From: Egibacteraceae bacterium
GTDB lineage: Bacteria > Actinomycetota > Nitriliruptoria > Euzebyales > Egibacteraceae
DNA length: 32,000 nt
Reading direction: 5' to 3'
Assembly (NCBI GenBank): GCA_050743125.1
Contig: JBOGEB010000013.1
Coordinates: 11,287 to 43,286, forward strand
The notes under the pieces were generated by a model. That model had not been told where the DNA came from, did not search any database, and saw only the letters and a list, made by a program, of their open reading frames with translations. Below, piece after piece: positions 619 to 19,777 of this stretch (within the stretch, counting starts at the first letter, position 1; each line of letters opens with the position of its first letter). The position numbers were made by a program, and so were the translations under genes.

Positions 619-730
619 CCTGGAAAATGGAGCCGAATGGGCACCAGCGGTTGCTCCCAGCGGCTTTGGGGTATTCGATAATCGCGATCTTTCATCGTGC
701 CCGGGGCAGCAGAAACCGGAAGGCATACGC

Positions 731-1658: not shown

Positions 1659-1659
1659 C

Positions 1660-3490: not shown

Positions 3491-3492
3491 CC

Positions 3493-4733: not shown

Positions 4734-5777
4734 TCAGATACGGCGACCGCTCTGGTGACGGCCGCCGTACCGCGGGCCTCGGAGGCGGATGCCGTTCGCC
4801 CGGCGCGCGCGCATAAAAACGGCCCCGCCGATACCCGCCAGGGTGAGTATGAGGCCGGGCAGCCAAGGGTTGAACAGGCCCGGCGAGCCGGTGGGCTCCG
4901 TTGCGACGATCGGTGACCGCGCCTCCGGCAGGGGCTCGATCAGGTCCACGGTGGCTGGACCTGATCCGACGGCACCGCTGGCGTGCCCACCCCCTGGCGG
5001 GTCCGGCGGTGCAGACGGGACTGGCGCCCCCGGAGCCTGAGTAGTGGGTCGGGGCGCCGACGGACCTATGGATCTCGGCTTCGCCGCGGGCGCCGCAGGA
5101 GCGATCAACGGAGGCGGCGGTTCTTGTGGCGGCATGGGGATGGGCTTTTCGGTGACGACGTCGGAGTGGTTCGGGCGCGGGCGCGGCCTGGGGTGCGCGT
5201 TCCGTTCCGGACGCGGGTGCAGTCTCGGGCGCGAGTCCGGTTCTGGTCGCGGATGCGGTTTCGGGGCGCGTTCCGATCTCGGGTGCGGGCGCGGGTGCGA
5301 ATCCGGTTCCGGTTGCGGGTTCGGGCGCGAGTCCCGTTCCGGGCGCAAGCCCGGGTCCGGGTCCGGGCGCAAGTTCCGCTCCGGGCGCGATTCCGGTCTC
5401 GGATCTGGGCTCGGGCTCGGGTCCGGAACCAAGCGCGGGCCCGGGTTTGCGTCTGGAACCGGGTGCGGACGCGATCTCGGGCGCGAGTCCTGTTCCTGCT
5501 CCGGGCGCGGACTTGAGTCCGGGCTCGGGTCTGGGCTCGGGTCTGGGCTCGGGTCTGGACTTGAGTCCGGTTCCAGGCTCGGGTCCGAGCGCGAATTCGG
5601 CCTCGGGTCCAGCCAGCAGTACCAGTGGATCGGGTTCGGGCACGACACCTGGTGCTGGATCCCCAGCTCGCCCGCTGTCACGGCAGTCGGCAGGCCGACC
5701 GAGCCGAGCGCCGCCAAGCCCAAGCCGATCCCGACCGCCGCCTTGGAGGGACCGCCCTTGCAACGGAACACCATCAT
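4734..5777 (-). CDS. secreted, C-terminally membrane-anchored proline-rich repetitive protein
   Basis: Start MMVFRCKGG (ATG at 5777) is preceded by GGAAGG. Signal-peptide-like AAVGIGLGLAALGSVGLPTAVTA. About 200 aa of P/D/S/R/E repeats (PDPSPDPSPDPSP, PRPEPDS...). C-terminal TM LPGLILTLAGIGGAVF is followed by RARR. All six frames are open here, so the frame choice rests on the signal and anchor logic. Confidence 0.55.
   Translation of the reverse strand: MMVFRCKGGPSKAAVGIGLGLAALGSVGLPTAVTAGELGIQHQVSCPNPIHWYCWLDPRPNSRSDPSLEPDSSPDPSPDPSPDPSPDSSPRPEQEQDSRPRSRPHPVPDANPGPRLVPDPSPSPDPRPESRPERNLRPDPDPGLRPERDSRPNPQPEPDSHPRPHPRSERAPKPHPRPEPDSRPRLHPRPERNAHPRPRPRPNHSDVVTEKPIPMPPQEPPPPLIAPAAPAAKPRSIGPSAPRPTTQAPGAPVPSAPPDPPGGGHASGAVGSGPATVDLIEPLPEARSPIVATEPTGSPGLFNPWLPGLILTLAGIGGAVFMRARRANGIRLRGPRYGGRHQSGRRI
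5509..5570. repeat. short tandem repeat inside the Pro-rich gene (12-bp unit GGGCTCGGGTCT x3, flanked by GGACTTGAGTCCGG x2)
   Basis: Direct reading of 5509-5570. It encodes the PDPS repeats on the minus strand. Confidence 0.7.
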
Positions 5778-6881
5778 CCTGACCTTCCTGCCATCCGCCA
5801 GTGACTGCTGGTCCGTTTCTCGACCGCCCGATCGCAATCGGGGGCGTCCCCCCGCCCTCACGTTACGACGTTTCCCACAAAATTTCCCGTTGGGCAGGGT
5901 ACGGCTGACCCCGCCGACCCGGTCCACGTCGAGGGGTGCCAAGCGTCTGCCGGCCCAGCGGTCCGCATCGGCCGAGGCAGGGAAGAACTCAACTCGGTAG
6001 GCAGCCGGCAGCGGCTCGCCAGGCGTTCAGCGTGCCGCTCGGCCCGCTGAGACCGGGCAGTGTGGGCTCGGAGGCGGTGATCGCGACGAACCGCCGCATT
6101 GGCTGCAGGGGCTCGGGCTGCTGCCCGCCACGCTTGCGCTGCCCCGCCAGCCCGCCGTTGACTTCCACGAGCAGACCATCACGCTGGTCACACGGTACGC
6201 GACGACCGCCCGGCGGAGCAGTTGGCCGACGCCCGCGCCCACCTCAACGTCCTGGGAGCCGCGCTGCGTGGGCCGAGACAGTTCGGGCAGCGCCGCGGCC
6301 TGCAGGTCGATGCGGCGGAGACCGCTTGCCTGGCCGCCTGCTCGGCCCGCTCCTGCGGATGTCTGGGCGAGACCACCGCGTTCTTCTCGCTCGCGCGGAG
6401 CCTCGCCGATCAGTCGCAGGTGGCGGGGGTGCGCGGCTGCGCGCTGGCGGTCTACTCGGTGCTGCATGCCCGATCATCGGGGACAACGACCCGTTGGCTG
6501 GGCTTCATCGCGAGCACCAGACCCGCAGCGCGCCTTCGCGCTGCCCGACGACGATGGTGATGAGGGGTTCCTCTCCAGCCGTCGGTTCCTCGTCAGCCTC
6601 GCCACGATGGGCGAGGCACAGCTTGACGCCTGGGTGAGCCGTGGCCTCATCCTGCTCGGCATGCGGTGGCAGGCCACGATCCGGAGCCGGCCTGTGTCCA
6701 GGCGCACCACGCGCTCGAGGTGGTGGCGCTGACCCGAGTCCACCACGCCCGCAACGAGATGCGCGGGCAACTGGACCGACACGTCCTGAGTCCGGGAGCT
6801 CACAAGCGCCACGCCTCGTCACCTGAGCCGGCGCGGTGCGGTTCGTCCGCCGGTCTCGGTAGGGAGCTGGAGAATGAAAGA

Positions 6882-7562
6882 ATGAGAGGAATCACTCAGG
6901 CGTTCGGTGCGCGGTTCGACCTCGACGATCTGCTGATCGTGGGCATCGCGTTGACCCTTGCGCTCACCGGCATCTCGTCACTGTTGAGCCCGCTGGGCAA
7001 CATCGCCGTCTCGGCGGTGGTCGTGCTCGCGTGGCTTGCGCTAGCCCGCAGACGCGCGCGGAGACGCCGCGGCCACTGGCGCGAGGCGGACTTCCAGAGC
7101 CCTCGTCGGGGTATCCTCTTCACAGTCGGGCTGGGTGGGGTCAAGGACGGGACCATCGCGGACCTCGTCGTCGATCGCCTGCGTCCCGAGTTCGTCGGCT
7201 TCCTGCTCACAGGCGAGGTCGAGAACCTCGAGCAGATCGAGGAGTTCAAGCGCCGGAAGGGTGTGGTCGTTCACTGCGAGCGGATCGACCCGGGTGACTT
7301 CGAGGGCTGCCGCCGGGCGACGGCCAGGGCACTCGAGTGGCTGCTCGACCAGGAGCTGGAGCGCGACGACCTCGTCGTCGACCTCACCGGGGGCTTGAAG
7401 AACGTCAGCCTCGCGGCCTTCCTCGCCGCCGAGGACTACCAAGTCGAGACGCAATACATTCAGTCCGACTACACCCAAGCCGCCAAACTCGTGCCGGGGA
7501 CACAGCAGCAGGTGCTGCTCACGACGTATCGCGGTGCGCCCGCCTCCACAGCCGCCGGCTGA
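6882..7562 (+). CDS. membrane-anchored CARF-domain protein (2 TM helices + CARF; Cam1-like putative cyclic-oligoadenylate-responsive effector)
   Basis: ATG at 6882 sits in a locally AT-rich initiation region with GGAG 9 nt upstream. TM1 is LLIVGIALTLALTGISSLL and TM2 is IAVSAVVVLAWLALA, followed by RRRARRRR. The Rossmann-like domain has GILFTVGLGG after strand 1 and DLTGGLK, which matches the CARF signature [DN]x[ST]xxx[RK]. It lies directly upstream of the type III cas genes. Confidence 0.6.
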   Translation: MRGITQAFGARFDLDDLLIVGIALTLALTGISSLLSPLGNIAVSAVVVLAWLALARRRARRRRGHWREADFQSPRRGILFTVGLGGVKDGTIADLVVDRLRPEFVGFLLTGEVENLEQIEEFKRRKGVVVHCERIDPGDFEGCRRATARALEWLLDQELERDDLVVDLTGGLKNVSLAAFLAAEDYQVETQYIQSDYTQAAKLVPGTQQQVLLTTYRGAPASTAAG

Positions 7563-7629
7563 CCCCAGACTCGACTCCACGCAGTTCGGCTCAGCTCCGT
7601 GGCGACCACGCCACTTGGATCCGTGCCTG

Positions 7630-7884
7630 CTACAGGTGTTGACTGTCCCCCTCGGGCGCGCGTCTCGACCCACGCTCCTCGATGAGTTCCCGCTGGACAC
7701 GCACCAGCGCTGAGTCCAGCTGGGGCAGGTGTTCGTCGACCGTATTGGCGATAATGTCAGGGTCCCGATCCCAGTACTCGTGGACCACCACGTTGCGAAA
7801 TCCCACAATCCTCCGCCACGGGATCTCTGGAGCGCGGCGGATGACGTCCTCCGAAAGGTGCTTGGCTGCCTCACCAATGCCTGT
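7630..7884 (-). pseudogene. HepT (DUF86/HEPN) toxin gene fragment, 5'-truncated, no start codon
   Basis: Manual minus-strand translation gives TGIGEAAKHLSEDVIRRAPEIPWRRIVGFRNVVVHEYWDRDPDIIANTVDEHLPQLDSALVRVQRELIEERG...QHL*. It contains the HEPN Rx4H motif (RNVVVH) and the IGEAAK box typical of HepT. The frame is closed upstream by TGA (7887..7885). The N-terminal ~45-50 aa and the cognate MNT gene are absent. It is missing from the ORF track. Confidence 0.65.
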
Positions 7885-7893
7885 TCAAGCATT

Positions 7894-9003
7894 CCCGGCG
7901 GCGTCCTCGCGATCGACGGCGACGAGGCTGATCGCCTCGCCGAGCGCCTGAAGGGCCTGCTCGCCGGCACGGTCCTGTTGGGCCGGTCCCGCCGGGCCGG
8001 GTACGGCGGGGACCCGGCGATCGAGTGGGACGCGCTGGGCGACCGCGAGGTCGAGGGGCCACAGGTGGTCCCGCTCGACCGGGATCTCCAGGCGGGCGGG
8101 ACCGTCCGGCTGCTGCTCACCTCGCCGTACCTCGGCCGTCATGCCGACACCGGTCAGCCCGACCCCACCTACCTGACGACCGAGATCGAGCGGCGCCTCG
8201 GCGCGGTCACCGTCGTGCGGCGGCGCTGGGCGTTCACCGAGGCCGGCGGCTACAACCGCGCTTGGGGGCTGCCGCTGCCCCAGCGCGCCGCCCTGGCCGC
8301 CGGATCAGTGCTGCTCCTGCGGGCGGACCACACCGTGCCTGCGGAACCGCTGCAGGACGTCGAGCACAGCGGGCTCGGCGACCGGCGGGTCGACGGCTTC
8401 GGCCGCTGCGTCTTCCTCCAGGCGCCGACCAAGACCGTCACCCTGCACGCCACCCCGAAGGCTCCACCGGCGCCGGCGCCCAACGGCCAGAGCCCGCCGA
8501 CGCTCGTGCGCACGATCGAGCGGCGGATCGCCGAGGCGCGGGTCCGTGACGAGATCGAAGACGTCGCCGCCACGATCGCCCACAGCGCGACAGGGATCCC
8601 GACGTCCAGCCTGATCGGGCGGCTGCGTGTGCCGTTGCGCGGCGACCCAGCGGCCGGGCTCGCCGAGCTCGCCGTATGGGTGGGGTCCAACGACACGACC
8701 GCGCGGCTGCGCCGACCGGCGCTCGACCAGCTCCACCGCTGCCGGCTGACAGAGCCCGACGAGGGGCCGACGACGACCCTTCTCACGTGGCTGCGAGACC
8801 TCTCCCACGACGGCGGGAAGCGACTCAACCGCCTCCTCCGGCTCGACGTCGTCGCCCACAACGCGGCGATCGGAGCAGAGGCCGCGCTCCGCGCAGACGT
8901 GGGGAAGAGCGCCACCGCGCACCGGGCGCTCCTGGTCGATGCGGTCCTGGCCGCGCTCCGCCTCCGGCTGAAGACCACGAGCCAGGAGGGCGTCGATGAC
9001 TGA
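7894..9003 (+). pseudogene. Cas5(Csx10)-Cas11 fusion-like type III subunit, N-terminally truncated
   Basis: The C-terminal ~370 aa of ORF 7729..9003 carries two RAMP glycine-rich loops (LLGRSRRAGYGG; GLGDRRVDGFGRCVF) plus GGYNRAWGLPLP, then a ~170-aa helical Cas11-like tail. The first G-loop lies ~30 aa from the junction, so most of the first RRM is missing. The ORF's first ~55 codons (7729-7893) are antisense to the HepT fragment and are not genuine coding. Confidence 0.6.
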
Positions 9004-10420
9004 CCTCGCCGACACCGGCGGTGCCCGCCGCCTCCGGGCACGTTGGGTGCTCGCCGCTGACCTCGTCCTCCGCACCGCCGCGCACCTCGGCGGGCAGGAC
9101 GAGGGAGCGGCCGACCTCAACGTGATCCGTGACCGGGTGGGCGGCGGGCCGCTCCTGCCAGGGACGTCGCTCGCGGGAGCGCTCCGCGGCCACCTGTGCG
9201 ACCGGCTGGGTGGGTACGCCAGCGCGGAGGCTGACCCGCGTATCGCGACGCTGTTCGGCGCCCGCCGCGCGGAGGACGGCGGCTCGCAGAGCCCGCTGGT
9301 CGTGTTCGACAGCCTCGGCCGCCTGCCTGCGGCTGGCACAGAGATCCGTGACGGGGTGAGCATCGACCACGGCACCGGCACCGCCGCCGAGAACAAGAAG
9401 TTCGACCTCGAGATCCTGCCCGCGGGAACGCGGTTCCCCGCCAGGATCGAGCTGCTGATCGACAACGGCGTCGATGAGCACGAGCTGGTCTCGCTGCTGC
9501 TCGCGGCCCTGCAGGGTCTGGCCGGCGGGGAGATCGCGCTCGGCGCGCGCCGCTCACGGGGACTCGGGCGCGTGGAGACCCGCGTATGGCGGGCCCACCG
9601 ATACGACCTCTCCTCGGCGGACGGGTGGCTGGCCTGGCTGTGCGCCGACCCCGCCGCGCCGATCCCCGACGACGTCGCCGGGCACGAGGATCCCGCTTCA
9701 GCGTGCGACACGGCGTGGCCGGCCCTGCGGCGGAGATCGACGCCGGACCAGCGCGAGCGCGTCACGGTCGTCGCGCGGCTGGAGGTGCAGGGCGCCGTCT
9801 TGGTCCGCAGCCCGGCGGACTCGGCCGACGCACCGGACGTCGCGCACCTCCGCTCGGGCGGCGTGGGTGTCCTGCCCGGCACGAGCCTTGCCGGCGTCCT
9901 GCGGGCTCGGGCGCTGCGGATCCTCGATCTCCTCGGCGCTGACGGACGCCGCGACGGGCTCGTCGACGGGCTGTTCGGGTGGACGCCCCAGGGTCGGGCC
10001 GAGCCGGGAGGCCGGTCGTCGCGCCTGCGGATCGCCGAGAGCGTGATCGACGGCGGCGACCCCGTCCGCCAGACCCGCATCCGCGTCGACCGCGCGACGC
10101 AGGGCGTTGCGCGAGGCGCGCTGTTCGAGGAGGAGCCGCACGCCGGCGGCGAGCTGGACGTGCGCATGGAGCTCCGGAGCCCGAGAGACGGCGAGACCGG
10201 TCTGGTCCTGCTGCTGCTCAAGGATCTCCTCACCGGCGACCTCCCGGTCGGGGGGAGCGCGGCGGTCGGTCGTGGCGTCGTACGCGGGTCGGCGGTCGTG
10301 ACGTTCCCGGACGGCAGCACCGCCCGCCTGGAGCCCCCCGAGGCCGAGCAGCGCGCTCGGCTCGACGCGGAGATCCGCATGCTCGCGGCGGTGGCCGCGC
10401 GACAGGAGGCTGCCCGGTGA
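8996..10420 (+). CDS. cas7: double Cas7 (Csm3/Cmr4-like x2) RAMP backbone subunit
   Basis: 474 aa with two repeats of the Cas7 signature (ADLNVIRDRVGGGPLLPGTSLAGALRGHL; DAPDVAHLRSGGVGVLPGTSLAGVLRARA) and G-rich loops (GARRSRGLGRV; GGSAAVGRGVV). Candidate catalytic Asp residues are retained in both halves. The ATG overlaps the upstream stop by 8 nt. Confidence 0.8.
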   Translation: MTDLADTGGARRLRARWVLAADLVLRTAAHLGGQDEGAADLNVIRDRVGGGPLLPGTSLAGALRGHLCDRLGGYASAEADPRIATLFGARRAEDGGSQSPLVVFDSLGRLPAAGTEIRDGVSIDHGTGTAAENKKFDLEILPAGTRFPARIELLIDNGVDEHELVSLLLAALQGLAGGEIALGARRSRGLGRVETRVWRAHRYDLSSADGWLAWLCADPAAPIPDDVAGHEDPASACDTAWPALRRRSTPDQRERVTVVARLEVQGAVLVRSPADSADAPDVAHLRSGGVGVLPGTSLAGVLRARALRILDLLGADGRRDGLVDGLFGWTPQGRAEPGGRSSRLRIAESVIDGGDPVRQTRIRVDRATQGVARGALFEEEPHAGGELDVRMELRSPRDGETGLVLLLLKDLLTGDLPVGGSAAVGRGVVRGSAVVTFPDGSTARLEPPEAEQRARLDAEIRMLAAVAARQEAAR

Positions 10421-11013
10421 TCACGCTCGAGCGCTGCACTCTGAGCCCGCTGTCACCCGAAGACTGCGGACAGCTTCTCGACTGGGTGCTCGGCGAGGGT
10501 CCGCCGCCGGACGATGCCGGCAATCCCCGCTGGCTGCTCGCCCACTGCGACGACGGGGTCGTCTGGGGCCACCGCCGGACGCCGGACGGCTCGTGGGCGC
10601 TGTCGTCGGCTGCGTTCCCGGCCGTCTCGCCGCCGCTGCGGGCCGGCACGCTCCAAGAGCTGCGCGTGTTCGGCTTCGACGAGGAGCGGCTGGTCTGGCG
10701 GGCCGACGGCGGGCTCGCCGGTCGCCGGCTCCGGGACGCGCCCAACGGGCGAGGCGAGGGGACCGAGCACGTGGAGGACGTCCGCATCGTCCGTGGCGAG
10801 CACGTCCCGGAGGAGCCCCGAAGCGGTTTCACGCTGGTCACCGACAGCGCCGGCTCACGGCACGCTGTGCCAACGGCGTGCGCAGAGGCGGAATTCAAGA
10901 ACGGTCAGCGGGTGCGGCTGGTGCTGCGCCACTACCTGGAGCAGGACTCGAAGACCGGGGCGGTGCGCATCGCCGCCACCCGTCTCGTCGACCTCGAGCT
11001 GGAGCGTGGATGA
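10417..11013 (+). CDS. csx19: Csx19-like (TIGR03984-type) small type III-D subunit
   Basis: GTG at 10417 overlaps the upstream TGA (GTGA), with AGGAGG 7 nt upstream. 198 aa. Its position between the double Cas7 and the large Cas7-insertion gene matches the III-D variant gene order. Family assignment is by recall plus synteny, not by alignment. Confidence 0.55.
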   Translation: MITLERCTLSPLSPEDCGQLLDWVLGEGPPPDDAGNPRWLLAHCDDGVVWGHRRTPDGSWALSSAAFPAVSPPLRAGTLQELRVFGFDEERLVWRADGGLAGRRLRDAPNGRGEGTEHVEDVRIVRGEHVPEEPRSGFTLVTDSAGSRHAVPTACAEAEFKNGQRVRLVLRHYLEQDSKTGAVRIAATRLVDLELERG

Positions 11014-11014
11014 C

Positions 11015-13216
11015 ATGGAGCACCTCCCCCACCACGTCAACCCGCCCGACGGCCGCACGGCGACGGCGCCGTACAACTTCGTGCCGCTCCCCCAGCAGGT
11101 GCTGCTCGCCGAGAGGGTGGTGACCGGCGAGCCGTGGAAGGCGCACGACCGCTGGCTGCCCGGCACCCACAGCGGGTGGATCGACCTCCAGATCGAGACG
11201 CTGACCCCGCTGTTCGTCCGCGGACCGGTCCTGCGCCAGGAAGGCGGGTGGGACAAGCGCGAGGCCCGCCTGCGCCCCGAGCCGTGGACGACGGCCGACG
11301 GCCGGCCGGCCATCCCCGGCTCGAGCCTGCGCGGGATGCTCCGCACCCTCGTCGAGATCCTCGCGTTCGCAACGATCACCCCGGTCAGCGACGCCAAGCC
11401 GTTCTTCCGCACGGTGTCCGCCGACCGGCTCGGCATCGCCTACCGCAACCGGGTCCTCCAGAACGGCAAGAGCAAGCCGGAGGGCGGGTTCCTCCGGCGC
11501 CGAGGAGAGGGTTGGGTAGTGGAGCCCGCAATGGTCCTGCGCGTGCCCCACCGCAAGCATGCCCAGGGCTTCGGTTACCGCCAGCACCCGAGCTACCACC
11601 CCGACTGGGCGCTCCAGCACCAGCAGTGCTGGGTGCAGCGCGACGGCGAGCGGGTGACAGCGATCGAGATCGGCGCGAAGAGGCCGAAGGGCGACGGTTG
11701 GGCCGAGGGCACGCTCGTGCTGACCGGCAGCGCGCCCAACAAGGAGGCCGAGTTCGTGTTCCTCGCGAACCGCGCCGCCAAGCCCGCCGAGGTCCCGGAC
11801 GAGGTCTGGGAGCGGTTCCACGACGACGACCAGATCAGCCAATGGCAGGAGAAGGGCTTCCCAGAGCACGAACCGGCAGGTGGCCGGCGCCGGGCCGCCG
11901 GCCACCTGCGCGACGGCGAGCCGGTGTTCTTCCTGCGGGAGAGCGCTGACCAAGTGCGGTTCCTCGGCCGCGCGCAGATGTTCCGGTTCCCGTACGACCG
12001 CAGCATGGCCGACCTCGTTCCCCCGGCGCTGCGCGGTGCCGAACTCGACGTCGCGGAGGCCGTGTTCGGCCGGGTGCGCAAGGACCGGAACGACCCGCTC
12101 CCGACCGTGAAGGGGCGCGTGTTCGTCGAGGACGCGGTCGGGGTCAGCCATCGGAGGGGGTGGTTCGAGCCTGATCTGGTCCCGCAGATCCTCTCGTCTC
12201 CCAAGCCGACGACGTTCCCTCACTACCTGACACAGGACGGCCGTCAGCCCAAGGAGGCGCTCACGACCTACCTCGCGGGCGACGAGACCACGATCCGCGG
12301 CCACAAGCTCTACTGGCACCGCTGGGGCGAGGACGAGCTGGCCGACGTCTGTGACCGGTCCCAGAGCCCCCGCAGCAGCCAGCACACGGTCATCCGACCG
12401 GTGCGGGCCGGGGTCACGTTCGAGGGACGGGTCCGCTTCGAGAACTTGAGCGACGTCGAGCTGGGCGCGCTCCTCGCGGCGCTGAGGCTCCCGTCCGGCT
12501 GCGCGCACAAGCTCGGCATGGCCAAGCCGCTCGGCCTGGGCAGCGTCAGGATCACCCCCGCGCTCCACCTCGTCGACCGCGCCGCGCGCTACCGCTCGTG
12601 GAGCGACACGGGGCAACGGCCTGACCAGGACGCGGCAGTAGAGGCGCATTGTGTGGACGCATTCGTGGCCGCAGTGCTCGCGCACGCCGGCACGAGCCAG
12701 GAGGCGACGCTGGAGGAGCAAGAGGGCCTCCGGAGGGTTGCCCGGCTCGACGCGCTCTTCACGATGCTGTCCTGGGAGGAACACCCGCCGCGGGAGGCGA
12801 CCGCGTACATGCCCCTGGCCGGCTTCAAGGACCGGAAGGTCCTCCCGACCCCGCACCGCGTAAGCGACCCCAAGCGGGACGAGCCGGACTGGCCCGGGCC
12901 CGCGCCGACGGCGGCGCCCGAGGAGCCCGACCCCGACCGTCCGCCGGCCGCTGCGACTGCCGTCGGCAGCGTCGTTCAGGGAACCGCGCTGGAGGCCAAG
13001 ACGAACAAGGGCGGCTGGGTGTTCGCCTTGCCCGACGGCCAGGAGGGCATCTTCGCCCCGGGCTGCCCTCAACCGTCTGATCTCGCGCCAGGGCGCCAGT
13101 ACAACTTTGTGCGGAAGACCGATCCACCGCGCAGCGAGCGGGCACAGCTGTGGTGGGTCGATCCCGACGCTCCTCCACCAGCGCCAAGGGCCCGGCCCGA
13201 CCGCCGTCGGCGCTAG
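11015..13216 (+). CDS. cas7: large RAMP protein, Cas7 with insertion (TIGR03986-like), with extra C-terminal domain
   Basis: 733 aa. Motifs: APYNFVPLP, GWIDLQIETLTPLFVRGP, RPAIPGSSLRGMLRTLVEILAF, LYWHRWG, and C-terminal G-loop KLGMAKPLGLGSVRIT. A large insertion separates the motifs. The ATG is 2 nt after the upstream stop. Confidence 0.8.
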   Translation: MEHLPHHVNPPDGRTATAPYNFVPLPQQVLLAERVVTGEPWKAHDRWLPGTHSGWIDLQIETLTPLFVRGPVLRQEGGWDKREARLRPEPWTTADGRPAIPGSSLRGMLRTLVEILAFATITPVSDAKPFFRTVSADRLGIAYRNRVLQNGKSKPEGGFLRRRGEGWVVEPAMVLRVPHRKHAQGFGYRQHPSYHPDWALQHQQCWVQRDGERVTAIEIGAKRPKGDGWAEGTLVLTGSAPNKEAEFVFLANRAAKPAEVPDEVWERFHDDDQISQWQEKGFPEHEPAGGRRRAAGHLRDGEPVFFLRESADQVRFLGRAQMFRFPYDRSMADLVPPALRGAELDVAEAVFGRVRKDRNDPLPTVKGRVFVEDAVGVSHRRGWFEPDLVPQILSSPKPTTFPHYLTQDGRQPKEALTTYLAGDETTIRGHKLYWHRWGEDELADVCDRSQSPRSSQHTVIRPVRAGVTFEGRVRFENLSDVELGALLAALRLPSGCAHKLGMAKPLGLGSVRITPALHLVDRAARYRSWSDTGQRPDQDAAVEAHCVDAFVAAVLAHAGTSQEATLEEQEGLRRVARLDALFTMLSWEEHPPREATAYMPLAGFKDRKVLPTPHRVSDPKRDEPDWPGPAPTAAPEEPDPDRPPAAATAVGSVVQGTALEAKTNKGGWVFALPDGQEGIFAPGCPQPSDLAPGRQYNFVRKTDPPRSERAQLWWVDPDAPPPAPRARPDRRRR

Positions 13217-13223
13217 AAGCCCG

Positions 13224-13628
13224 ATGCGTACCGCCAGGTCGCCGCTGGTCTGCAACTTCTCGCACCCGCTGACCCATGCGCACGTCGAGCAGTTGGAGGC
13301 GTTGCTCGGCGTCCCGGTGGACGCGGTGATCGAGCGACCGACCGTCTTCGACCCTGGGACGCCGTTCGCCGAGCAGGCCAGGCGGCTGGTCGACGCCGTC
13401 GGGCTGAGCGTGGCCGAGTGGCAGACCCGCCCGATCGTCGTGCACCTGCCGGGACACAGCGTGATCGCCGCCCTGGTCCTGGCCGAGCTGCACGGGCGCA
13501 CCGGTGGGTTCCCTGCGGTGCTGCGGCTCCGGCGTCTGGAGCCGCTCAACGAGTTCACCGTCGCGGAGCTGATCGACCTGCAGGCCGTGCGCGAGGCCGG
13601 CAGGGGAACCCGCATGGAGAGGAGGTGA
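13224..13628 (+). CDS. small CRISPR-associated accessory protein (possibly Csx15-like; uncertain)
   Basis: 134 aa, MRTARSPLVCNFSHPLTHAHVEQLEALLG... It is packed tightly between the effector genes and cas6 (8 nt after the upstream stop, 3 nt before the cas6 ATG). Alpha/beta-like pattern. The family name is from weak recall only. Confidence 0.4.
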   Translation: MRTARSPLVCNFSHPLTHAHVEQLEALLGVPVDAVIERPTVFDPGTPFAEQARRLVDAVGLSVAEWQTRPIVVHLPGHSVIAALVLAELHGRTGGFPAVLRLRRLEPLNEFTVAELIDLQAVREAGRGTRMERR

Positions 13629-13631
13629 GCG

Positions 13632-14390
13632 ATGCCGGTCGCCTACACGCTCCTGCTCCGAACCGGAGCCGCGGCGCCGGAGCCGACGCATGAGGATCTG
13701 CACCGGCTCGCGTGCCGGCTGGTGGAGCCGCCGGGCAACCCGGCGCATCAGGATCAGCGCAAGCCGTTCACGCTGTGGCCGCTGCAGGTGGCGCCGGAGC
13801 GGGGAGACGAGTGCCAGCTGCGGCTGAACTGGCTGCCGGTCGACGACGGCCTCGGCAGCCACCTGCGGCTGGCGCTGGGCCGGCGGCTGTGGCTGGGGAC
13901 CGCGGAGGTCGTCCCGCTCGACGTCGACCGACAGGGCACGAGCTACCAGACACTGCGTGACCTCCCACCGCTGTGGCAAGCCGACCTGCGGTTCCTCTCC
14001 CCCACCTATTTCTCGCGCAGCGGGAGGGACTACCTGCTGCCCGACCCGGCGCTGATCGTGCGCAGCCTCGTCGTCCGCTGGAACGAGCAGGTCGAGGAGC
14101 GCCCCGCGCTGGCGATCGACGGGGACGTGGCGCGCGAGCTCGGCCGGCGGGTGATCCTCAAGGCCCACGAGCTGTACACCGTGCGGGTGACGGGCGCGGA
14201 CGGACGGCCGCGGACCGGGTTCAAGGGGCAGGCGCGGCTGGGTCTGCGGACCGCCGAGCGACGCTCGGCCGAGGGCGTCGCCTGCGCGCGGCTGCTCGCC
14301 ACGCTGTGCGCCTTCGTGCCCTACTGCGGGTTGGGGGCGCAGACGACGCACGGCCTCGGCGCCGTCGCGGTCTACTCGGCGGATGGGTGA
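13632..14390 (+). CDS. cas6: Cas6 CRISPR RNA endoribonuclease
   Basis: 252 aa. Strong SD (GGAGAGGAGG). C-terminal Cas6 glycine-rich signature YCGLGAQTTHGLGAV. Double-RRM size, and position immediately upstream of the adaptation genes. Confidence 0.8.
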   Translation: MPVAYTLLLRTGAAAPEPTHEDLHRLACRLVEPPGNPAHQDQRKPFTLWPLQVAPERGDECQLRLNWLPVDDGLGSHLRLALGRRLWLGTAEVVPLDVDRQGTSYQTLRDLPPLWQADLRFLSPTYFSRSGRDYLLPDPALIVRSLVVRWNEQVEERPALAIDGDVARELGRRVILKAHELYTVRVTGADGRPRTGFKGQARLGLRTAERRSAEGVACARLLATLCAFVPYCGLGAQTTHGLGAVAVYSADG

Positions 14391-16254
14391 GCTGCTCGAC
14401 CGGGCGGCGCGCCAGCAGGCGCTGCTGGACGCCTAGCACGACCTGCGCGCCGAGGCCCGGCAGGAGGGGCGGCTCGACGCGCACTTCGCGGCGTTCGAGC
14501 ACCAAGCGGCACAGCGGCTGGCCACGATCTCGAGCAGGCTGCGCGAGGGCGCCTGGCAGCCGTCGCCGGTGCGCCGGGTGGCCATCGCGAAGCCGGCGGG
14601 CGGCCAGCGGGTCCTCGGCGTGCCAGTCCTGGAGGACCGCGTGGTCGAGCGCGCCCTGCTCCGTGTCATCGACACGGTGATCGACCCCGAGCTGCTGCCT
14701 TGGTCGTTCGGCTACCGCCGAGGCCTGGGGGTGCAGGATGCGCTGCGCTGCCTGACCGAGGCGCGGGACGAGGGCGCGCCCTGGGTCGCCCGCGGCGACT
14801 TCACCCGCTGCTTCGACGAGGTCCCGCGCGCCCGGCTGCTGGACCGGCTCGCGAAGGTCGTCCCGGACGCCGAGCTGGTCGACCTCGTCCGGGCGCTCGT
14901 GCACCGGCCGGTCGAGGGCGGACCGCGGCACAGCGAGAAGGGGCTGCACCAGGGGTCCGCGATCTCGCCCGTCCTCACGAACCTCTACCTCGACCAGTTC
15001 GACCGGACGATGCTCGACGGCGGCTGGCAGGTGATCCGCTACGGCGACGACTACGCCATCCCGGTCGCCGACCGTGTGGCCGGCGACGCGGCGGTCGGGG
15101 CCGCGCAGCGGGCCGCGGCCGGCCTCGGCCTGGAGCTGAGCCCACAGAAGTGCAGCGTCCGCTCGTTCGACGAGGGCGTGCCCTTCCTCGGCCAGGTCGT
15201 CACCAGCGGCACAGGGCTGCGGACCGAGCAGCGCAGCCATCCGCACGCCACGACCGTGTTCGTGGCCGAGGAGCCGAACGGGCTGCTGCGCAGCCGCGGC
15301 TCCCGTCTGCGGTTGGAGCGCGGCGGCGAGCTGGTGTTCAGCGTCGCCTTCCCGCGCGTCCGCCAGGTCGTGGTGTTCGGGCGGGTCGGGATGACCACTC
15401 CGTTCCTCCAGCAGGTCCTGGTCCGCGGCATCGACGTGGTGCTGCTCAGCGACCACGGCAGGTACATCGGCCGGCTGCAGGGCGCGACGGCGACGAACCC
15501 GTTCGTCCGGCAGCGCCAGTACGAGGCCGAGCGCACGAGCGCGCGCCGGATGGACCTGGCGCAGCGGGTCGTCCGTGGGAAGATCGTCAACCTGCGGGTC
15601 GGGCTGCTGCGAGCGCGCCGACGCGTGGAGCAGCCGTCGTTCACGCGCCGCATCGACCGAATGGGCGAGCTGCTCGAGTCCGTGCCCGGCGCGAGGAGCC
15701 TGGCGTCGCTGATGGGCGTCGAGGGCGCGGCGACGCGCGACTACTTCGCCGGGCTCACCCAGCTCATCGCTGCTGAGTGGGGGTTCACGCACCGACGGCG
15801 CCGGCCACCGTCCGACCCCTTCAACTCCCTGCTCAGCCTCGGCTACACGCTGCTGTTCCAAGAGACGATCGCCGCGTTGGAGGTCGCCGGCCTCGACCCG
15901 TACGTCGGCTTCCTGCACGAGGCGCGGGTCGGCCGGCCGGGCCTGGCGCTCGACCTGATCGAGGAGTTCCGGCCCGTGATCTTCGACTCGGTCGCGCTGC
16001 GGGCGGTGAACACCGGGATGCTGCGCCAAGAGCACTTCACGTGCGACCCCGGCCCACCCGTGTCGTGCCTGCTGACCAACGAGGGGCGGAAGCTCTACCT
16101 GGCCGCCTACGAACGGCGCATGCTCACGCTGATGAGCCATCCCGGCACGCACCGCCGGGTCTCCTATCGTGTGGCGCTCAGCCTGCAGGCCCGCGCGCTC
16201 GCCGACGAGCTGCTCGGCCAAGCCGCCCGCTACGAGCCGCTGGTGTGGAAGTGA
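14383..16254 (+). CDS. cas1: reverse transcriptase-Cas1 fusion, interrupted by in-frame TAG at 14434-14436 (longest clean ORF 14569..16254)
   Basis: ATG at 14383 overlaps the cas6 stop (ATGGGTGA). N-terminus is MGELLDRAARQQALLDA*HDLRAEA.... RT motifs: KPAGGQRVLGVPVLEDRVVERALL, GDFTRCFDEV, GLHQGSAISPVLTNLYL, RYGDDYAI (YxDD), FLGQVV. The Cas1 part carries GVEGAATRDYF, NSLLSLGYTLL, GFLHEARVGRPGLALDLIEEFRP. Confidence 0.85.
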
Positions 16255-16529
16255 TCTACCTCGTCGCCTACGACATCGCCGACGACCGCCGCCGCGAGGA
16301 GATCGCCGCCATCCTCTCCACCTACGGCGCCCGGGTGCAGCTGAGCGTCTTCGAGTGCGAGCTGGCCGACCCCGCCACCGTGGCAACGGTCACGGGCTTG
16401 CTCACCCGCACGATCGAGCCCGCCGAGGACCAGATCCGCCTGTACCCCCTGCCCGCCGGCTCCGTCCGCGGAACCGAGATCATCGGCAACCGCCGCCTCG
16501 AGGAGCGCGCCGACTTCTGGATCGTATGA
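16251..16529 (+). CDS. cas2: Cas2
   Basis: The GTG start overlaps the RT-Cas1 stop (GTGA). 92 aa: VIYLVAYDIADDRRREEIAAILSTYGARVQLSVFECEL...IRLYPL, typical Cas2. Confidence 0.85.
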   Translation: MIYLVAYDIADDRRREEIAAILSTYGARVQLSVFECELADPATVATVTGLLTRTIEPAEDQIRLYPLPAGSVRGTEIIGNRRLEERADFWIV

Positions 16530-16758
16530 CGGCCCCCGGGTCCCTGCGGCTGTCGGATTCACCCCCTTTCGACCGACCGTTGCAGCCCCTCACGCCACGA
16601 CGCCAAACCGGCCCGGTGCGCGCTACGCCATTTCCGCTGGTCAGCGCCCTGCCCGCCCCACACCCGTCCTTCCCTCGGCCCCTCTCCACCCCCCGCCCGC
16701 CCCGGTCCGCGCAACGCCGCGTATACTCCCAGGTCAGCGGCCCCTTTCTGCGGGAAGG

Positions 16759-16869
16759 GTTCCCCCTTAACGCCCGGTGCTCAGGGCATAGAAACGCCGC
16801 CTTCAACATGTGGAGTTGAGGAAAGCGATACCGTTCCGCCTTAGGCCTCGATGTTTCATGTGATTATGC
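16759..16869 (+). CRISPR. vestigial CRISPR array: one 37-nt repeat, one 37-nt spacer, one degenerate terminal repeat
   Basis: R1 (16759-16795) is GTTCCCCCTTAACGCCCGGTGCTCAGGGCATAGAAAC, with a GCCC/GGGC hairpin followed by an 8-nt ATAGAAAC tail. R2 starts exactly 74 nt later (16833) as GTTCCGCCTTAGGCCTCGATGTTTCAT...; 10 of the first 11 nt are identical, then it degenerates. The spacer (16796-16832) is ~54% GC versus ~70% locally. The array begins 230 nt downstream of cas2 on the same strand. There are only two copies, so this is tentative. Confidence 0.4.
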
Positions 16870-16919
16870 GGGGCGGGTCTGAGGGGCCTGTGGGGCTGTC
16901 GATGAGAGCGCAGGAGACG

Positions 16920-16942
16920 AAAAAACCGGCCGTGGCCGGGTT
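16920..16942 (-). terminator. weak intrinsic-terminator-like hairpin with T6 tail (minus strand)
   Basis: The minus strand reads AACCCGGCCACGGCCGGTTTTTT. A T6 run is rare at this GC content. It lies ~110 nt downstream of the transposase-fragment stop. The stem is short (4-6 bp). Confidence 0.3.
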
Positions 16943-17054
16943 GAGGCAGCAGTCGACGGATGTTCGGATGGTGTTGGGGCAGGCTGAGGCAGCGGCAGGG
17001 CCGCTGGCAGATGTTGTGAGAGGATTGTCGGACGGCGAGGGGAGATCAGGCCCG

Positions 17055-17509
17055 TCAGGTGGCCGGTAGGGGCAGTGCGTCCAACCGTTCGAACGCCGCT
17101 GCCAGCTGGGCCGCCCACGGCCAGTCATGCTGGATTCTCAGCTTCAGCCGCCGGCCCGAGCGGACGATCCGCGCTGGGGCGTGCAGCACCTTGCAGCGCA
17201 GGGTGGCGGGCTCGGCCAGCCGCAGCCGACCGTCGAACGTCAACACCTGCGTCCACACCATGAGCTCCTGAGCCGTCATCACCGGCTGCAGCCAGACGGC
17301 GTCGCGTTCGAACGTCTCGCACGGCAGGTTGCGCGCCCCGGTGTCACAAGGCGTGCGCGGATGCGGTCCTCGACGTGCGCGAGGCCGCGATGGCGCACGT
17401 CCCGGCCGGCGAGATCCGCGTCGGGCTGGTCGGTGAGGAAGGCGGTGAACCGTTTCCCGTCGACGTCGAACAGGGTCTGCTGCGCCCCGGGATGCAGCGC
17501 CGTGAAGCC
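17055..17509 (-). mobile_element. IS1380-family transposase gene fragment (C-terminal ~150 aa only, frameshifted)
   Basis: Two minus frames together read HPGAQQTLFDVDGKRFTAFLTDQPDADLAGRDVRHRGLAHVEDRIR / DTGARNLPCETFERDAVWLQPVMTAQELMVWTQVLTFDGRLRLAEPATLRCKVLHAPARIVRSGRRLKLRIQHDWPWAAQLAAAFERL. This matches the conserved IS1380 C-terminus as I recall it. The N-terminal ~300 aa are absent. Confidence 0.7.
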
Positions 17510-18100
17510 GCGCGACGATCTCGCGGAACCGGTCCAGGACACGGCCGCAGCCCAGATCTTTGGTGTTGGCCACGATGGCCTCGAAACGCAGGACGTGCTC
17601 GCCTTTGGTGTACGCCTTGGAGGGTCAGGTTGCCGAAGCGGGACCTTGAACACCGTCAGGTCGTAACAAGGTGTGGCGACCACGGCCTCGACGCGCCAGG
17701 TGCTCGTGCGGTTGCGGTGAGGACGGCTCTTGGCGCCGAACAGGGTCCGTATCTTCGCCCACGTCCAGCCTGGAGCGGGTGCGGTCTACCAGCTGCCCGA
17801 AGACCCGCTGGATCTGGGCGCCGGAGGAGAACAGCAGATTGCGGCTGTATTCGGCCTGATAAACCGAGTAGGAGCAGCGAAAGCCGCTGCGCTGCTGATC
17901 TGCCAGGTCCAAACCGAAGCACAGACACGCCGAGTAGATCCGGGCGCTCGCAGACCTGGCTTGCCCGCCCTACTGTCGCCTGCTGCGACAAGGTGTCTGC
18001 GATCTAAAGCCAGGCCTGCGGGGTCGGCTGTACGAGTGAAGCAGTTGCCTTCTTTGACGAAGCCGATCCCCGCCTTGCGCGCTGTTAGCCGCCAGGGTTT
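17505..18100 (-). pseudogene. second degraded transposase-like/conserved actinobacterial ORF, spread over three frames
   Basis: Minus-strand pieces in successive frames read GIGFVKEGNCFTRTADPAGL..., YSVYQAEYSRNLLFSSGAQIQRVFGQLVDRTRSRLDV, IRTLFGAKSRP, YDLTVFKV, RFGNLTL and KAYTKGEHVLRFEAIVANTKDLGCGRVLDRFREIVARL. The series ends abruptly where the IS1380 fragment begins (~17505-17512). I did not recognise the family with confidence. Confidence 0.5.
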
Positions 18101-18421
18101 TTGACCTTGGTGTGGGCCGATTCGGCCGGGGTTGTTGTCCTCTACGCAGGGTGACGGACGGTTTGCTGTCGGGCGCGGGGACGGAAAGGATGTCGCGGTC
18201 CTGACATGAGTCGGCCCTCGCGACGCCTGTCAGCGTCCGAGGGCCTTGGGCTGATCGTGGCAGCCGTTGCTGATCGTATTCGCTGTCGAGGTTGGGGTCA
18301 GCGATGACGTTGTGAGACGGCGGCCGGTCCGCGGTCGAAGAGCTGCCGATCGCTCGGGACCTCATCCACAGATCGACTGGGATACTTGCGCCCACACCAC
18401 CCGATCAGGCATACTACGAAC

Positions 18422-19777
18422 ATGTGTTTGATCGATGGGCAGACAGCGGTAGACGCGCTGGCGTCGGCCTGCGACGCGCTGGCCGCCCGCGACCTGGACA
18501 CGTTAGGCGAGGCCCGGTTGCGCGCCGACGTGGAGGCGTTGACACGGGTCGCCGCGCGGGTGGCCGCCGAGCGGCTGCGGTGTGTGGCCGCGGTCGCGCG
18601 TCGCGCGCCGGACGCGGCAGCCGGCGCGGAGCAGGCGCAGCAGCTGCTGCGCACCGCGGGGCGGCTGTCCGGCGGGCAGGCCGCCAGCCAGACACGGCTG
18701 GCCACCGCGCTGGCCGACCCAGGGTTGCAGGTCACGGCGGCGGCGTTGGCGGCGGGGCGGATCAGCCCCGGCCAGGCCGACGCGCTCGCCCAAGCGGCGC
18801 GCACCCACCCGCAGCTTGTCGCCGCAGCGCAAGACGAGCTGGTCGCCCAGGCATCTGAGTGCGACGACCGGGCGTTTCGGGAGGCGCTGGCCGACCGTCG
18901 TCACGCCGCGGATCCTGGTCCGGAGGAGGAGCGGGCGTGCCGCCAGTACGCCGCCCGCCGGTTCGCTCTGTGCCCGCTGCCCGACGGGATGCGCCAGACC
19001 GACGGGCTGCTGGACCCGTCCGGCGCCGCGCTGCTGGCCACCGCGTTGGACGCGTTGGCCGGTCCTGACCCGGCCACGGTGCCCGAGGAGCTGCGGCGCA
19101 CCCGTGAGCAGCGGATGGCCGACGCACTGGTCGAGCTGGCCCGCCGCGCGTTGGCCCGCAACGACGAGCTGCCCAGCGTTGCGGGCCTGCAGCCTAGGGC
19201 GACGGTGTTCGTCACGCCGGAGACGCTCGCTGAGGAGCCCGACGCCCCGGCAGCACGGTTGGACTGGGCGGGGGTGATCTGCGGCGCGACCGCCAGACGG
19301 ATCGCGTGCGACGCCGACGTGGTCCGCCGCCAGGTCACCCGTGACGGGCGGACGGTGTGGGTGGACGCGCGCCGGCATCCCAGCCCCGCGCAACGCCTAG
19401 CGGTGATCGAGCGTGACCGCACCTGCCGGTTCGTCTACCCGGACGGCACCCGGTGTCAGCGGCCGTGGCAGTGGTGCGACTGCCATCACGTCGAGCATCA
19501 CGGCGACGGCGGGCCCACGCTGATCCCCAACCTCGCGTTGCTGTGCACAGCTCACCATCACGCGGTGCACGAGGGCGGCTGGTGGGTGACCGGCAACGCC
19601 GACGCGACGCTGACCTTTCACCCGCCGTTGGGCTGGCCCCACCACCAGCCGCGACCGCGTCCCGCGCGGCCGGCTCCACGGACCGTGCCGCCAGCCAGAC
19701 CGCCCGCCACCCACCATCCCGGCAGCAACCGTGGCCCCCGCGACCCCGACCCTCCGCAACTCGTCCTGATCGAATGA
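18422..19777 (+). CDS. DUF222 / HNH endonuclease domain protein (13E12-repeat-type)
   Basis: The N-terminal DUF222-like region (ALDALASACDALAARDLDTLGEARLRADVEAL...) and the C-terminal HNH (CRFVYPDGTRCQRPWQWCDCHHVEHHGDGGPTLIPNLALLCTAHHHAVHEGGW) are typical of the actinobacterial DUF222-HNH family. The ATG at 18422 is preferred over the upstream alternative start at 18386. Confidence 0.85.
   Translation: MCLIDGQTAVDALASACDALAARDLDTLGEARLRADVEALTRVAARVAAERLRCVAAVARRAPDAAAGAEQAQQLLRTAGRLSGGQAASQTRLATALADPGLQVTAAALAAGRISPGQADALAQAARTHPQLVAAAQDELVAQASECDDRAFREALADRRHAADPGPEEERACRQYAARRFALCPLPDGMRQTDGLLDPSGAALLATALDALAGPDPATVPEELRRTREQRMADALVELARRALARNDELPSVAGLQPRATVFVTPETLAEEPDAPAARLDWAGVICGATARRIACDADVVRRQVTRDGRTVWVDARRHPSPAQRLAVIERDRTCRFVYPDGTRCQRPWQWCDCHHVEHHGDGGPTLIPNLALLCTAHHHAVHEGGWWVTGNADATLTFHPPLGWPHHQPRPRPARPAPRTVPPARPPATHHPGSNRGPRDPDPPQLVLIE

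Follow-up and report, generated by a model that had tools for sequence, protein, structure and literature searches.

Does a type III CRISPR-Cas locus whose Cas7-type genes are open and translationally coupled, and which has no cas10, represent a Cas10-independent effector on its way to type III-E, or what is left of an ordinary system? A first-pass annotation of the 32 kb of DNA analysed here (the window) had left both readings standing. We consider it highly probable (about 0.88) that the locus is the recently inactivated, RT-Cas1-associated remnant of a type III-D system, in the variant that combines a Cas5-Cas11 fusion with Cas7-2x, Csx19 and a Cas7 with insertion. One recent deletion took Cas10 and its neighbours, so we regard the locus as an ordinary gene remnant and not as a new Cas10-free system; it belongs to a known, widespread subtype and opens no new question. 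Of the earlier interpretation, the placement in the type III-D family with loss of Cas10 and the option of recent inactivation were retained, while the Cas10-independent backbone was not.

Profile searches confirmed a clipped cas5-cas11, cas7-2x, csx19, cas7 with insertion, csx15, cas6, an RT-cas1 with a TAG stop, and cas2 (Table 1), lending support to the previous Cas7, Csx19 and Cas6 assignments. Together with reading of the sequence they placed genes and lesions where the first-pass annotation had put them, and the start/stop overlaps at 8996, 10417, 11015, 14383 and 16251 all hold. The Cas7-type genes are indeed uninterrupted, and Cas7-2x has the candidate catalytic residues D40, aligned to D33 of Synechocystis and shared by 112 of 120 homologues, and D281, conserved in 120/120. 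A fused double Cas7 with catalytic Asp residues (two RAMP stretches; match to the Cas7-2x chain PDB 8s9t_D, 9.7e-24), a Csx19 scoring above the TIGR03984 cutoff, and a Cas7 with large insertion (393.9 bits versus a TIGR03986 cutoff of 161.35; PDB match 8s9t_E), all of them marks of type III-D, are thus present. Csx19 had no sequence-level PDB match, although the Synechocystis complex contains one, and was assigned on the basis of the TIGR03984 and PADLOC profiles. What had been listed as a small protein upstream of cas6 is Csx15. Cas6 has the length of its counterpart in a 61%-identity relative. Counting against inactivation, about 5.4 kb (cas7-2x, csx19, cas7-insertion, csx15 and cas6) are still open, with the catalytic Asp residues kept.

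Table 1. Features of the type III-D remnant and its surroundings (positions in the window; L004, orthologous locus of a related genome)
Feature	Position	Strand	Support or remark
Cam1-like membrane CARF effector gene, 226 aa, intact	6882..7562	+	PADLOC, PDB
HepT (HEPN/DUF86) toxin gene fragment, 5' end missing	7633..7881	-	PF01934
Right-hand deletion junction	7895..7896	.	homology resumes at 7896 = L004 position 6183
cas5(csx10)-cas11 remnant	7897..9003	+	C-terminal 365 aa, residues 195-559 only
cas7-2x, two fused Cas7 domains, 474 aa, intact	8996..10420	+	PADLOC Cas7_IIId 4.4e-111
csx19, 198 aa, intact	10417..11013	+	TIGR03984 7.3e-26, 90.9 bits vs cutoff 35
cas7 with large insertion, 733 aa, intact	11015..13216	+	TIGR03986 2.1e-117, full profile coverage
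csx15, 134 aa	13224..13628	+	NF040560 CAS_Csx15 4.8e-39
cas6, 252 aa, intact	13632..14390	+	PF10040 3.9e-16
RT-cas1 pseudogene	14383..16254	+	PF00078 1.2e-24, PF01867 3.5e-86; TAG at 14434-14436
cas2, 92 aa, intact	16251..16529	+	PF09827 2.6e-18
Leader-like region	16530..16758	+	conserved with L004, collinear blastn block up to 16794
Single CRISPR repeat, GTTCCCCCTTAACGCCCGGTGCTCAGGGCATAGAAAC	16759..16795	+	unique in window at <=3 mismatches
37-nt spacer-like stretch and possible degenerate terminal repeat	16796-16832 and 16833-16869	+	sequence reading
IS transposase remnant (DDE_Tnp_1_4), frameshifts and stops	17055..17900 (approximate)	-	PF13701 1.5e-12

The complete Cas5 (Csx10) of type III-D is missing. 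As had been noticed before, cas5-cas11 is clipped: the remnant matches the PADLOC Cas5_IIId profile (4.2e-46) at positions 178-455 of 499 only, the full-length protein of a relative covering positions 3-493, and it is 92% identical to residues 195-558 of protein P0002 (BLASTP). It lacks a native start codon. The open frame extends upstream as far as a GTG at 7729, but the sequence in frame upstream of 7897, previously read as cas sequence, is antisense hepT. The last ~135 aa probably correspond to Cas11, judging from the profile and from a partial alignment to 8s9t_A. Bar P0001, a 381-aa call from this lineage, the 69 Cas5-Cas11 homologues comprise 481-587 aa, most of them 520-590 aa, and three of the four shortest (481, 490 and 496 aa) are located on contigs of <3 kb.

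An orthologous locus in another Egibacteraceae MAG (GCA_050743665.1, contig JBOGEE010000427.1; L004) shows 85-93% nucleotide identity to the window and shares with it the gene order, flanking genes, leader and repeat, most genes being 85-95% identical. It differs in possessing a Card1/Can2-like gene, cas10, cas7, a full-length cas5-cas11 and an inverted second leader with repeat, in the absence of the hepT fragment and the IS remnant, and in indels of its own in cas6 and RT-cas1. Its cas7-insertion and csx15 represent a diverged allele, most of which is only 60-72% identical to the window, compared to 92-96% for the neighbouring genes. Positions 1708-6182 of L004 (~4.5 kb) correspond to merely 343 nt in the window (7553-7895), with both flanks collinear at 85-91% identity (blastn). 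This L004 stretch, flanked by the CARF gene and, at the point where homology resumes (blastn blocks, BLASTP), by codon 195 of the 559 codons of cas5-cas11, contains a leader with repeat in inverted orientation, the gene of a Card1/Can2-like CARF nuclease (profile CARF-PD-(D/E)xK, 1.6e-53), cas10, cas7 and the 5' end of cas5. The encoded Cas10 is compact (Cas10d profile, 1.1e-93), with a GGDD motif visible in the sequence; the stand-alone Cas7 (211 aa; 7e-56) is, like the nuclease, absent from the window. The 343-nt filler harbours the hepT fragment (PF01934, 9.7e-18, profile positions 37-118 of 120, with the motif RNVVVHEYW), which occurs neither in L004 nor in L005. One end of the deletion lay within an adjacent hepT toxin gene and the other at codon 195 of cas5-cas11. 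Lost with it were cas10, the stand-alone cas7, the Card1/Can2-like gene, the leader with repeat upstream of that gene, 40% of cas5-cas11 (its 5' part) and the upstream region belonging to the operon itself. A sigma-70 promoter and terminator scan round the junction returned nothing, a result that is uninformative for an actinobacterium of 71% G+C.

The reported absence of cas10 holds for the entire 32 kb. No Cas10 was matched among the window proteins in profile searches, tblastn with the relative's Cas10 gave only E >= 0.17, and none of the lost genes left a trace in the window (tblastn, all E > 0.1). Thus, the window lacks the signature gene of type III as well as the first Cas7, stand-alone or fused, that precedes Cas5 in type III-D. 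In contrast, the order cas10-cas7-cas5/11-cas7-2x-csx19-cas7-insertion is found in all five relatives (52-92% protein identity), in four of which a Card1/Can2-type gene is situated immediately upstream of cas10. A fusion of Cas7 with Cas5-Cas11 is not borne out, as the first Cas7 of the relatives is encoded by a separate gene (211-225 aa); the strict triple fusion Cas7-Cas5-Cas11 of type III-Dv does not occur in the relatives, whose cas7 (211 aa) and cas5-cas11 (559 aa) are separate, overlapping genes, and the window has this region deleted. Outside assemblies that share 99.6-100% identity with the window, the Cas10-less, clipped form was not encountered.

The region 6882-7562, formerly assigned to cas5-cas11, is a separate gene. 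PADLOC placed its product among the CARF proteins with membrane anchor (CARF8--CARF_TM, 1.8e-18; CARF_2M, 1.5e-14), with two predicted TM helices and a CARF domain, and it matched Cam1 (PDB 8t64) with E=3.2e-9. A hydrophobic N-terminal stretch is visible, and the protein has the predicted TM plus CARF architecture of Cam1-like effectors. The ortholog in L004 shows 88% nucleotide identity and a dN/dS of 0.23.

Damage to the adaptation module and the array is of a different kind. RT-Cas1 and Cas2 are not preserved as open frames throughout: both RT-Cas1 domains are present and cas2 is intact, but codon 18 of RT-cas1 is TAG, as annotated before, where L004 has TGG (Trp). The next in-frame ATG, GTG or TTG is a GTG at 14569, and homology to the RT profile starts upstream of it: in the frame that opens at 14437, the match begins with residue 6. 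The nonsense codon was gained separately from the deletion. Downstream, window positions 16563-16658 match L004 1981-2075 on the minus strand, i.e. the second, inverted leader copy, which sits upstream of the can2-like gene (inverted repeats I1 and I3). The single repeat was recognized only through comparison with L004, which has a homologous lone repeat at ~15046-15082 and whose homology to the window stops at the repeat's 3' end. By our own count, the possible degenerate second repeat agrees with it in 10 of the first 12 positions and in 18/37 overall. The spacer-like stretch had no match in the window or in viral contigs, tandem-repeat and generic repeat finders detected no array in the window, and an Rfam scan of the window gave nothing. 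A lone repeat with a weak degenerate second copy, in place of the several-unit array of type III-D, agrees with the earlier description of the array as vestigial. Also counting against inactivation, the lone repeat and downstream sequence could in principle give a single crRNA. What follows the repeat in L004 is replaced by the IS remnant (six-frame translation; the PF13701 match covers the C-terminal part only), window positions 16795-18299 having no L004 counterpart. The array has shrunk to a single repeat next to a dead IS element.

Does selection maintain the surviving genes? Relative to L004, dN/dS ranged from 0.36 to 0.52 for the effector genes (0.45-0.52 for the Cas7 genes), and the lowest value, 0.16, belonged to RT-cas1, which is broken in both the window and the L004 lineages. 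Low dN/dS therefore reflects past, not present, selection, and with a pseudogene giving the lowest value it was rejected as a test of current selection; the comparison of the intact Cas7 genes, proposed as a check by the first-pass annotation, thus revealed no special retention. Two amino-acid relative-rate tests, of little power with 12-23 polarised sites, indicated no branch asymmetry (13 versus 10 and 5 versus 7). A codon test on 40 polarised changes (16 falling on the branch of the window and 24 on that of L004), likewise of little power, yielded N/S ratios of 8/8 and 8/16, respectively (p=0.34). Among assemblies of the deletion lineage, the Cas7 genes show 0-1 differences, too few for polymorphism to serve as a further test. 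We attribute the open frames of cas7-2x, csx19, cas7-insertion, csx15, cas6 and cas2 to the recency of the damage and not to retention.

The remnant might be complemented in trans, with a second type III system supplying Cas10, Cas5 and Cas7, or using the Cas7-family proteins and Cas6 of the remnant. It is common for a genome to carry several type III loci, a III-A-like csm cluster adjoins the III-D locus of one relative (L009), and the window is only 32 kb of a genome; nevertheless, such complementation is improbable. No Cas10 more than 58% identical to that of L004 was found in 5.8e9 proteins except L004's own, so that the assembled data of the lineage hold no cognate Cas10, and subunits of different subtypes are generally not interchangeable, which speaks against cross-subtype exchange. 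The repeat core, moreover, was found in no other array: the GTDB species genomes gave one chance match (Roseivirga), the JGI metagenomes none, and no intact sister array turned up in either collection, a weak point because the source genomes evidently lie outside both.

That Cas7-2x, Csx19, Cas7-insertion and Cas6 are kept by selection as a Cas10-independent backbone that binds or cuts RNA, a step toward III-E, is very improbable. Uninterrupted Cas7-type genes with conserved Asp residues and dN/dS below 1 would fit it, Cas7-11 structures are among the PDB matches of the window Cas7 proteins, and type III-E demonstrates that type III effectors without Cas10 are possible. However, cas10 is kept in 5/5 diverged relatives, the Cas10-less form being confined to near-identical assemblies, and the rate tests, for all their low power, revealed no lineage-specific selection, and the dN/dS of the broken RT-cas1 lies below that of the Cas7 genes. 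Cas5, the subunit that binds the 5' tag of the crRNA in other type III complexes, has lost its N-terminal 194 aa. A Cas7 subunit disappeared in the deletion as well, and in Synechocystis the equivalent Cas7 domain bears one of three active sites (PMC11026444). The remaining CARF effector depends on a cyclic-oligoadenylate signal, for which the locus has no source left. Finally, the III-E gRAMP model NF041225 reached only 80.3 bits over ~100 residues (cutoff 700).

Slightly less probable still is that the surviving Cas6, Cas7-2x, Csx19 and Cas7-insertion, perhaps with the Cas5-Cas11 remnant, load the one crRNA that the lone repeat and the 37 nt after it could yield, and act as a Cas10-free particle that binds or cuts RNA; if true, this would be a pared-down type III backbone existing in nature. 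The least credible explanation of all is an assembly artefact in which a metagenome contig was joined chimerically. The sources are indeed metagenome assemblies, and the differences between near-identical assemblies are oddly concentrated in what is left of cas5, which could reflect strain mixing, but the filler is a coherent gene fragment and recurs identically, with both junctions, in three independent assemblies: the window, L001 (an NCBI MAG contig) and L002 (a Logan assembly of another run).

Recent inactivation, by a single ~4.5-kb deletion, the RT-cas1 nonsense codon and the collapsed array, is therefore the reading of the two that we adopt. With the gene content shown by the relatives and the mechanism deduced from the work on Synechocystis III-Dv (PMC11026444) and on Cam1 and Card1, the intact system would have acquired spacers by RT-Cas1 and Cas2 and cut the repeat by Cas6, the crRNA serving as scaffold for Cas10, Cas7, Cas5-Cas11, Cas7-2x, Csx19 and Cas7-insertion. 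Target RNA would be cut by the Cas7 aspartates, and target binding would trigger the GGDD cyclase of Cas10, which is compact and lacks the HD domain; its cyclic oligoadenylate would activate the Card1/Can2-like nuclease and the Cam1-like membrane effector. The remnant can no longer perform cyclic-oligoadenylate signalling, nor can the window lineage acquire spacers with a full-length RT-Cas1. Assembly of a crRNA-loaded complex is probably no longer possible either; we infer loss of complex function from what has been published on the roles of Cas5 and Cas10 and from the placement of Csx19 between the two (PMC11026444; bioRxiv 10.1101/2022.06.13.496011).

The locus calls for caution, since intact, translationally coupled Cas7 genes without cas10 mimic an intermediate toward III-E, and comparison with a close relative reveals the fresh deletion behind it. 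With its sister, which carries different lesions, it provides a small, well-resolved case of type III loss within a lineage: the signal generator and one CARF nuclease by deletion, RT-cas1 by a nonsense codon, and the array by collapse near an IS element. This pattern fits the idea that costly systems signalling through cyclic oligoadenylate are readily shed.

Among known systems, Cam1 is a cA4-activated, membrane-depolarising CARF effector. The window protein resembles it in its predicted N-terminal TM helices and CARF domain and in its location beside a type III locus, but was placed by PADLOC in a two-TM CARF group, and its presumed activator Cas10 is gone. Type III-E effectors (Cas7-11/gRAMP) are single polypeptides of ~1,600-1,800 aa with their own crRNA processing; they share with the window the absence of Cas10 and the possession of Cas7 domains, one of which has a large insertion with homology to the TIGR03986 domain. 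The window, unlike III-E, has separate genes and no single polypeptide of four Cas7 domains plus Cas11, and its Cas10 was lost through an obvious recent deletion. The closest counterpart is the III-Dv complex of Synechocystis sp. PCC 6803 (PDB 8s9t; PMC11026444), chains of which were the best or among the best PDB matches for three window proteins or the full-length relative. Both have Cas7-2x with a conserved catalytic Asp in each domain, Csx19, a TIGR03986 Cas7 with insertion, a Cas5-Cas11 fusion and, in our case only in the relatives, a compact, HD-less Cas10 of the kind that makes cyclic oligoadenylate. The first Cas7 forms one protein with Cas5-Cas11 in Synechocystis, whereas the relatives encode it as a separate 211-aa gene, and the window has lost Cas10, this Cas7 and the N-terminal part of Cas5; our locus, in turn, is linked to RT-Cas1, Csx15 and the Cam1-like and Card1-like effectors.

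Since the window has a G+C content of 71%, plain ORF lists are full of false frames; its third-position GC frame plot delineated one gene train on the plus strand, from ~6880 to ~16530, with ordinary chromosomal genes as neighbours on both flanks. Searches with Pfam, NCBIfam and PADLOC profiles bore out the cas gene assignments of the first-pass annotation, and the start/stop overlaps listed there, as well as the stop codon in RT-cas1, were all found. Its start coordinate of the locus, 6882, has to be revised, because this ATG belongs to a separate gene for a Cam1-like protein. D40 of the double Cas7 protein (Cas7-2x) aligns to the catalytic D33 of its Synechocystis counterpart (reference residues from PMC11026444), and 112 of the 120 aligned homologues have it; D281 is invariant among them.

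Features of the gene train, the array and the flanks in the window; dN/dS ratios were computed pairwise against contig L004 of a close relative
Feature	Position	Strand	Description	dN/dS
Upstream flank genes			psiE, glutamine synthetase, amidohydrolase	
Cam1-like gene	6882 (ATG)	+	226 aa, two TM helices and CARF domain; PADLOC CARF_TM 1.8e-18; PDB 8t64 3.2e-9	
cas5(csx10)-cas11, C-terminal part	7897-9003	+	PADLOC Cas5_IIId 4.2e-46, only profile positions 178-455 of 499	0.36
Double cas7 (cas7-2x)	8996-10420	+	PADLOC 4.4e-111	0.46
csx19	10417-11013	+	TIGR03984, 90.9 bits (cutoff 35)	0.52
cas7 with insertion	11015-13216	+	TIGR03986, 393.9 bits (cutoff 161)	0.45
csx15	13224-13628	+	4.8e-39	
cas6	13632-14390	+	PF10040 3.9e-16	0.25
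RT-cas1	14383-16254	+	PF00078 1.2e-24, PF01867 3.5e-86; TAG at 14434-14436	0.16
cas2	16251-16529	+	PF09827 2.6e-18	0.15
Leader-like stretch	between cas2 and repeat		follows cas2	
Single CRISPR repeat	16759-16795		GTTCCCCCTTAACGCCCGGTGCTCAGGGCATAGAAAC; unique within window	
Spacer-like stretch	directly 3' of repeat		37 nt	
Weak second repeat	16833-16869		after spacer-like stretch	
DDE_Tnp_1_4 transposase	beyond weak second repeat		broken pieces, on the minus strand	
Downstream flank genes			DUF222 protein, two-component system, sigma factor, Mur ligase, PGA_cap protein	

Sixty-nine homologues were retrieved with the Cas5-Cas11 remnant as query. Apart from a 381-aa call from the window's own lineage, they are 481-587 aa long, mostly 520-590 aa, and of the four shortest, three (481, 490 and 496 aa) are encoded on contigs of <3 kb. 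The closest full-length protein (P0002; 559 aa, 92% identical), whose alignment with the window protein begins only at its residue 195, is encoded on L004 (contig JBOGEE010000427.1 of the Egibacteraceae MAG GCA_050743665.1). There, in this order, the genes for a Cam1-like protein, a CARF-PD-(D/E)xK protein (369 aa, Card1/Can2 type, 1.6e-53), Cas10 (544 aa, Cas10d profile 1.1e-93, GGDD in the sequence), Cas7 (211 aa, 7e-56) and full-length Cas5-Cas11 precede the further genes found in the window; cas10, cas7 and full-length cas5-cas11 together occupy L004 3397-7281. At the nucleotide level, L004 128-1707 matches window 5984-7552, and L004 6183-15082 matches window 7896-16794, so that 343 nt in the window stand in place of 4.5 kb in L004. 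On the minus strand, these 343 nt encode a HepT toxin reduced to its C-terminal two thirds (RNVVVHEYW motif; PF01934 9.7e-18 over profile positions 37-118 of 120), a sequence not found in L004, and tblastn detected no remnant of the lost genes in the 32-kb window. The simplest history is a single deletion reaching from within an inverted hepT gene into cas5.

A Cas7-insertion protein identical to that of the window is also present in the NCBI MAG GCA_975253835.1 and in two Logan assemblies, on contigs 99.6-100% identical to the window. The window lineage is represented in the samples SRR27067745 and SRR27067756. The window, the NCBI MAG contig L001 and the Logan assembly L002 share exactly the same junction, which is therefore no assembly accident. 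Variants among these near-identical assemblies cluster in the upstream intergenic region (5840-6880), in the Cam1-like gene (6886-7539) and in the cas5-cas11 remnant (8038-8595), where 27 sites vary, most of the changes being non-synonymous, with a 6-nt block at 8590-8595 among them; the next 10 kb (8596-18573) show 0-1 differences. Many of these variants agree with neither L004 nor the further relative L007; they may represent recombination patches or strain-mixed assemblies. L001 also shows a 12-nt indel within a block of imperfect tandem repeats (periods of 6-66 nt, 5168-5570), located inside a minus-strand ORF of 343 aa (4743-5774) without a family match.

L004 carries a second, inverted leader with one repeat (1892-2081, compared with 14846-15090) between the Cam1-like and the Card1/Can2-like genes; therefore, two arrays probably flanked the ancestral locus. 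The window lacks this inverted copy, which lies within the deleted stretch. Directly after the IS remnant, the DUF222-family gene (18386-19777) is conserved with L004 (dN/dS 0.24), where, compared with the window, 4-nt and 20-nt insertions are present.

RT-cas1 was damaged independently in both lineages, by the TAG codon in the window and by three 1-nt deletions in L004, and despite these lesions its dN/dS ratio is almost the lowest of the genes compared; the ratios therefore reflect selection before the lesions and cannot demonstrate present retention. With L007 (87% identical) as outgroup, nonsynonymous/synonymous changes in cas5-11 were 8/8 on the window branch versus 8/16 on the L004 branch (Fisher p=0.34), and amino-acid relative-rate tests gave 13 versus 10 changes for Cas7-2x and 5 versus 7 for Cas5-11, with no sign of either prolonged decay or special constraint. 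The deletion is young. Most of cas7-insertion together with csx15 (window 11300-13700) is only 60-72% identical to L004, as opposed to 92-96% in the genes on either side; it seems that recombination replaced this segment in one lineage with a diverged allele. In L004 (11989-14545), cas6 additionally has 12-nt, 1-nt and 50-nt deletions, so that the gene caller splits both cas6 and RT-cas1, which suggests parallel decay in this sister lineage, in a region covered by one assembly only.

All five relatives examined (52-92% Cas7-2x identity) share the order cas10 - cas7 - cas5/11 - cas7-2x - csx19 - cas7-insertion, preceded in four by a Card1/Can2-type gene directly 5' of cas10; the fifth, L008, has a 305-aa gene without a family match on record upstream of cas10. 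The III-D variant subtype is common: Cas7-2x has 1,414 homologues at E <= 1e-20, and for the compact Cas10 there are 638 at E <= 1e-30. In the distant relative L009, a contig of Desulfacinum infernum, a III-A-like csm cluster (Csm2, RAMP, Csm4; 1-3915) lies directly upstream of the III-D locus, and a CARF-adenosine-deaminase-like gene downstream.

The locus belongs to this known, widespread III-D variant and has decayed. The first-pass annotation had described it accurately and had offered two readings, of which the first, recent inactivation, is right, given the deletion relative to L004 and the cas10 kept in the relatives. That another type III system elsewhere in the genome complements the locus in trans is improbable. 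The 90% cluster of the L004 Cas10 holds one sequence only, recorded in NCBI and Logan sources, and the next best Cas10 among 5.8 billion proteins is 58% identical; among assembled sequences there is therefore no relocated cognate cas10 from the window's lineage. The second reading, a Cas10-independent backbone kept by selection en route to type III-E, is less likely still and found no support, given the cas10 gene of every relative examined, the absence of special constraint in the rate tests, and a window devoid of Cas10, the first Cas7, the Cas5 front and the operon's own upstream region.

Cas7-2x, Cas7-insertion and the full-length Cas5-Cas11 relative each find their best solved-structure match, or one of the best, in chains of 8s9t, the Synechocystis III-Dv complex. 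[quoted passage not shown] The window locus keeps the Cam1-like effector without a source of its signal. We infer that it has lost adaptation by full-length RT-Cas1; by analogy with the Synechocystis complex, from which it differs in lacking Cas10, the first Cas7 and the front of Cas5, interference and signalling would be lost as well.
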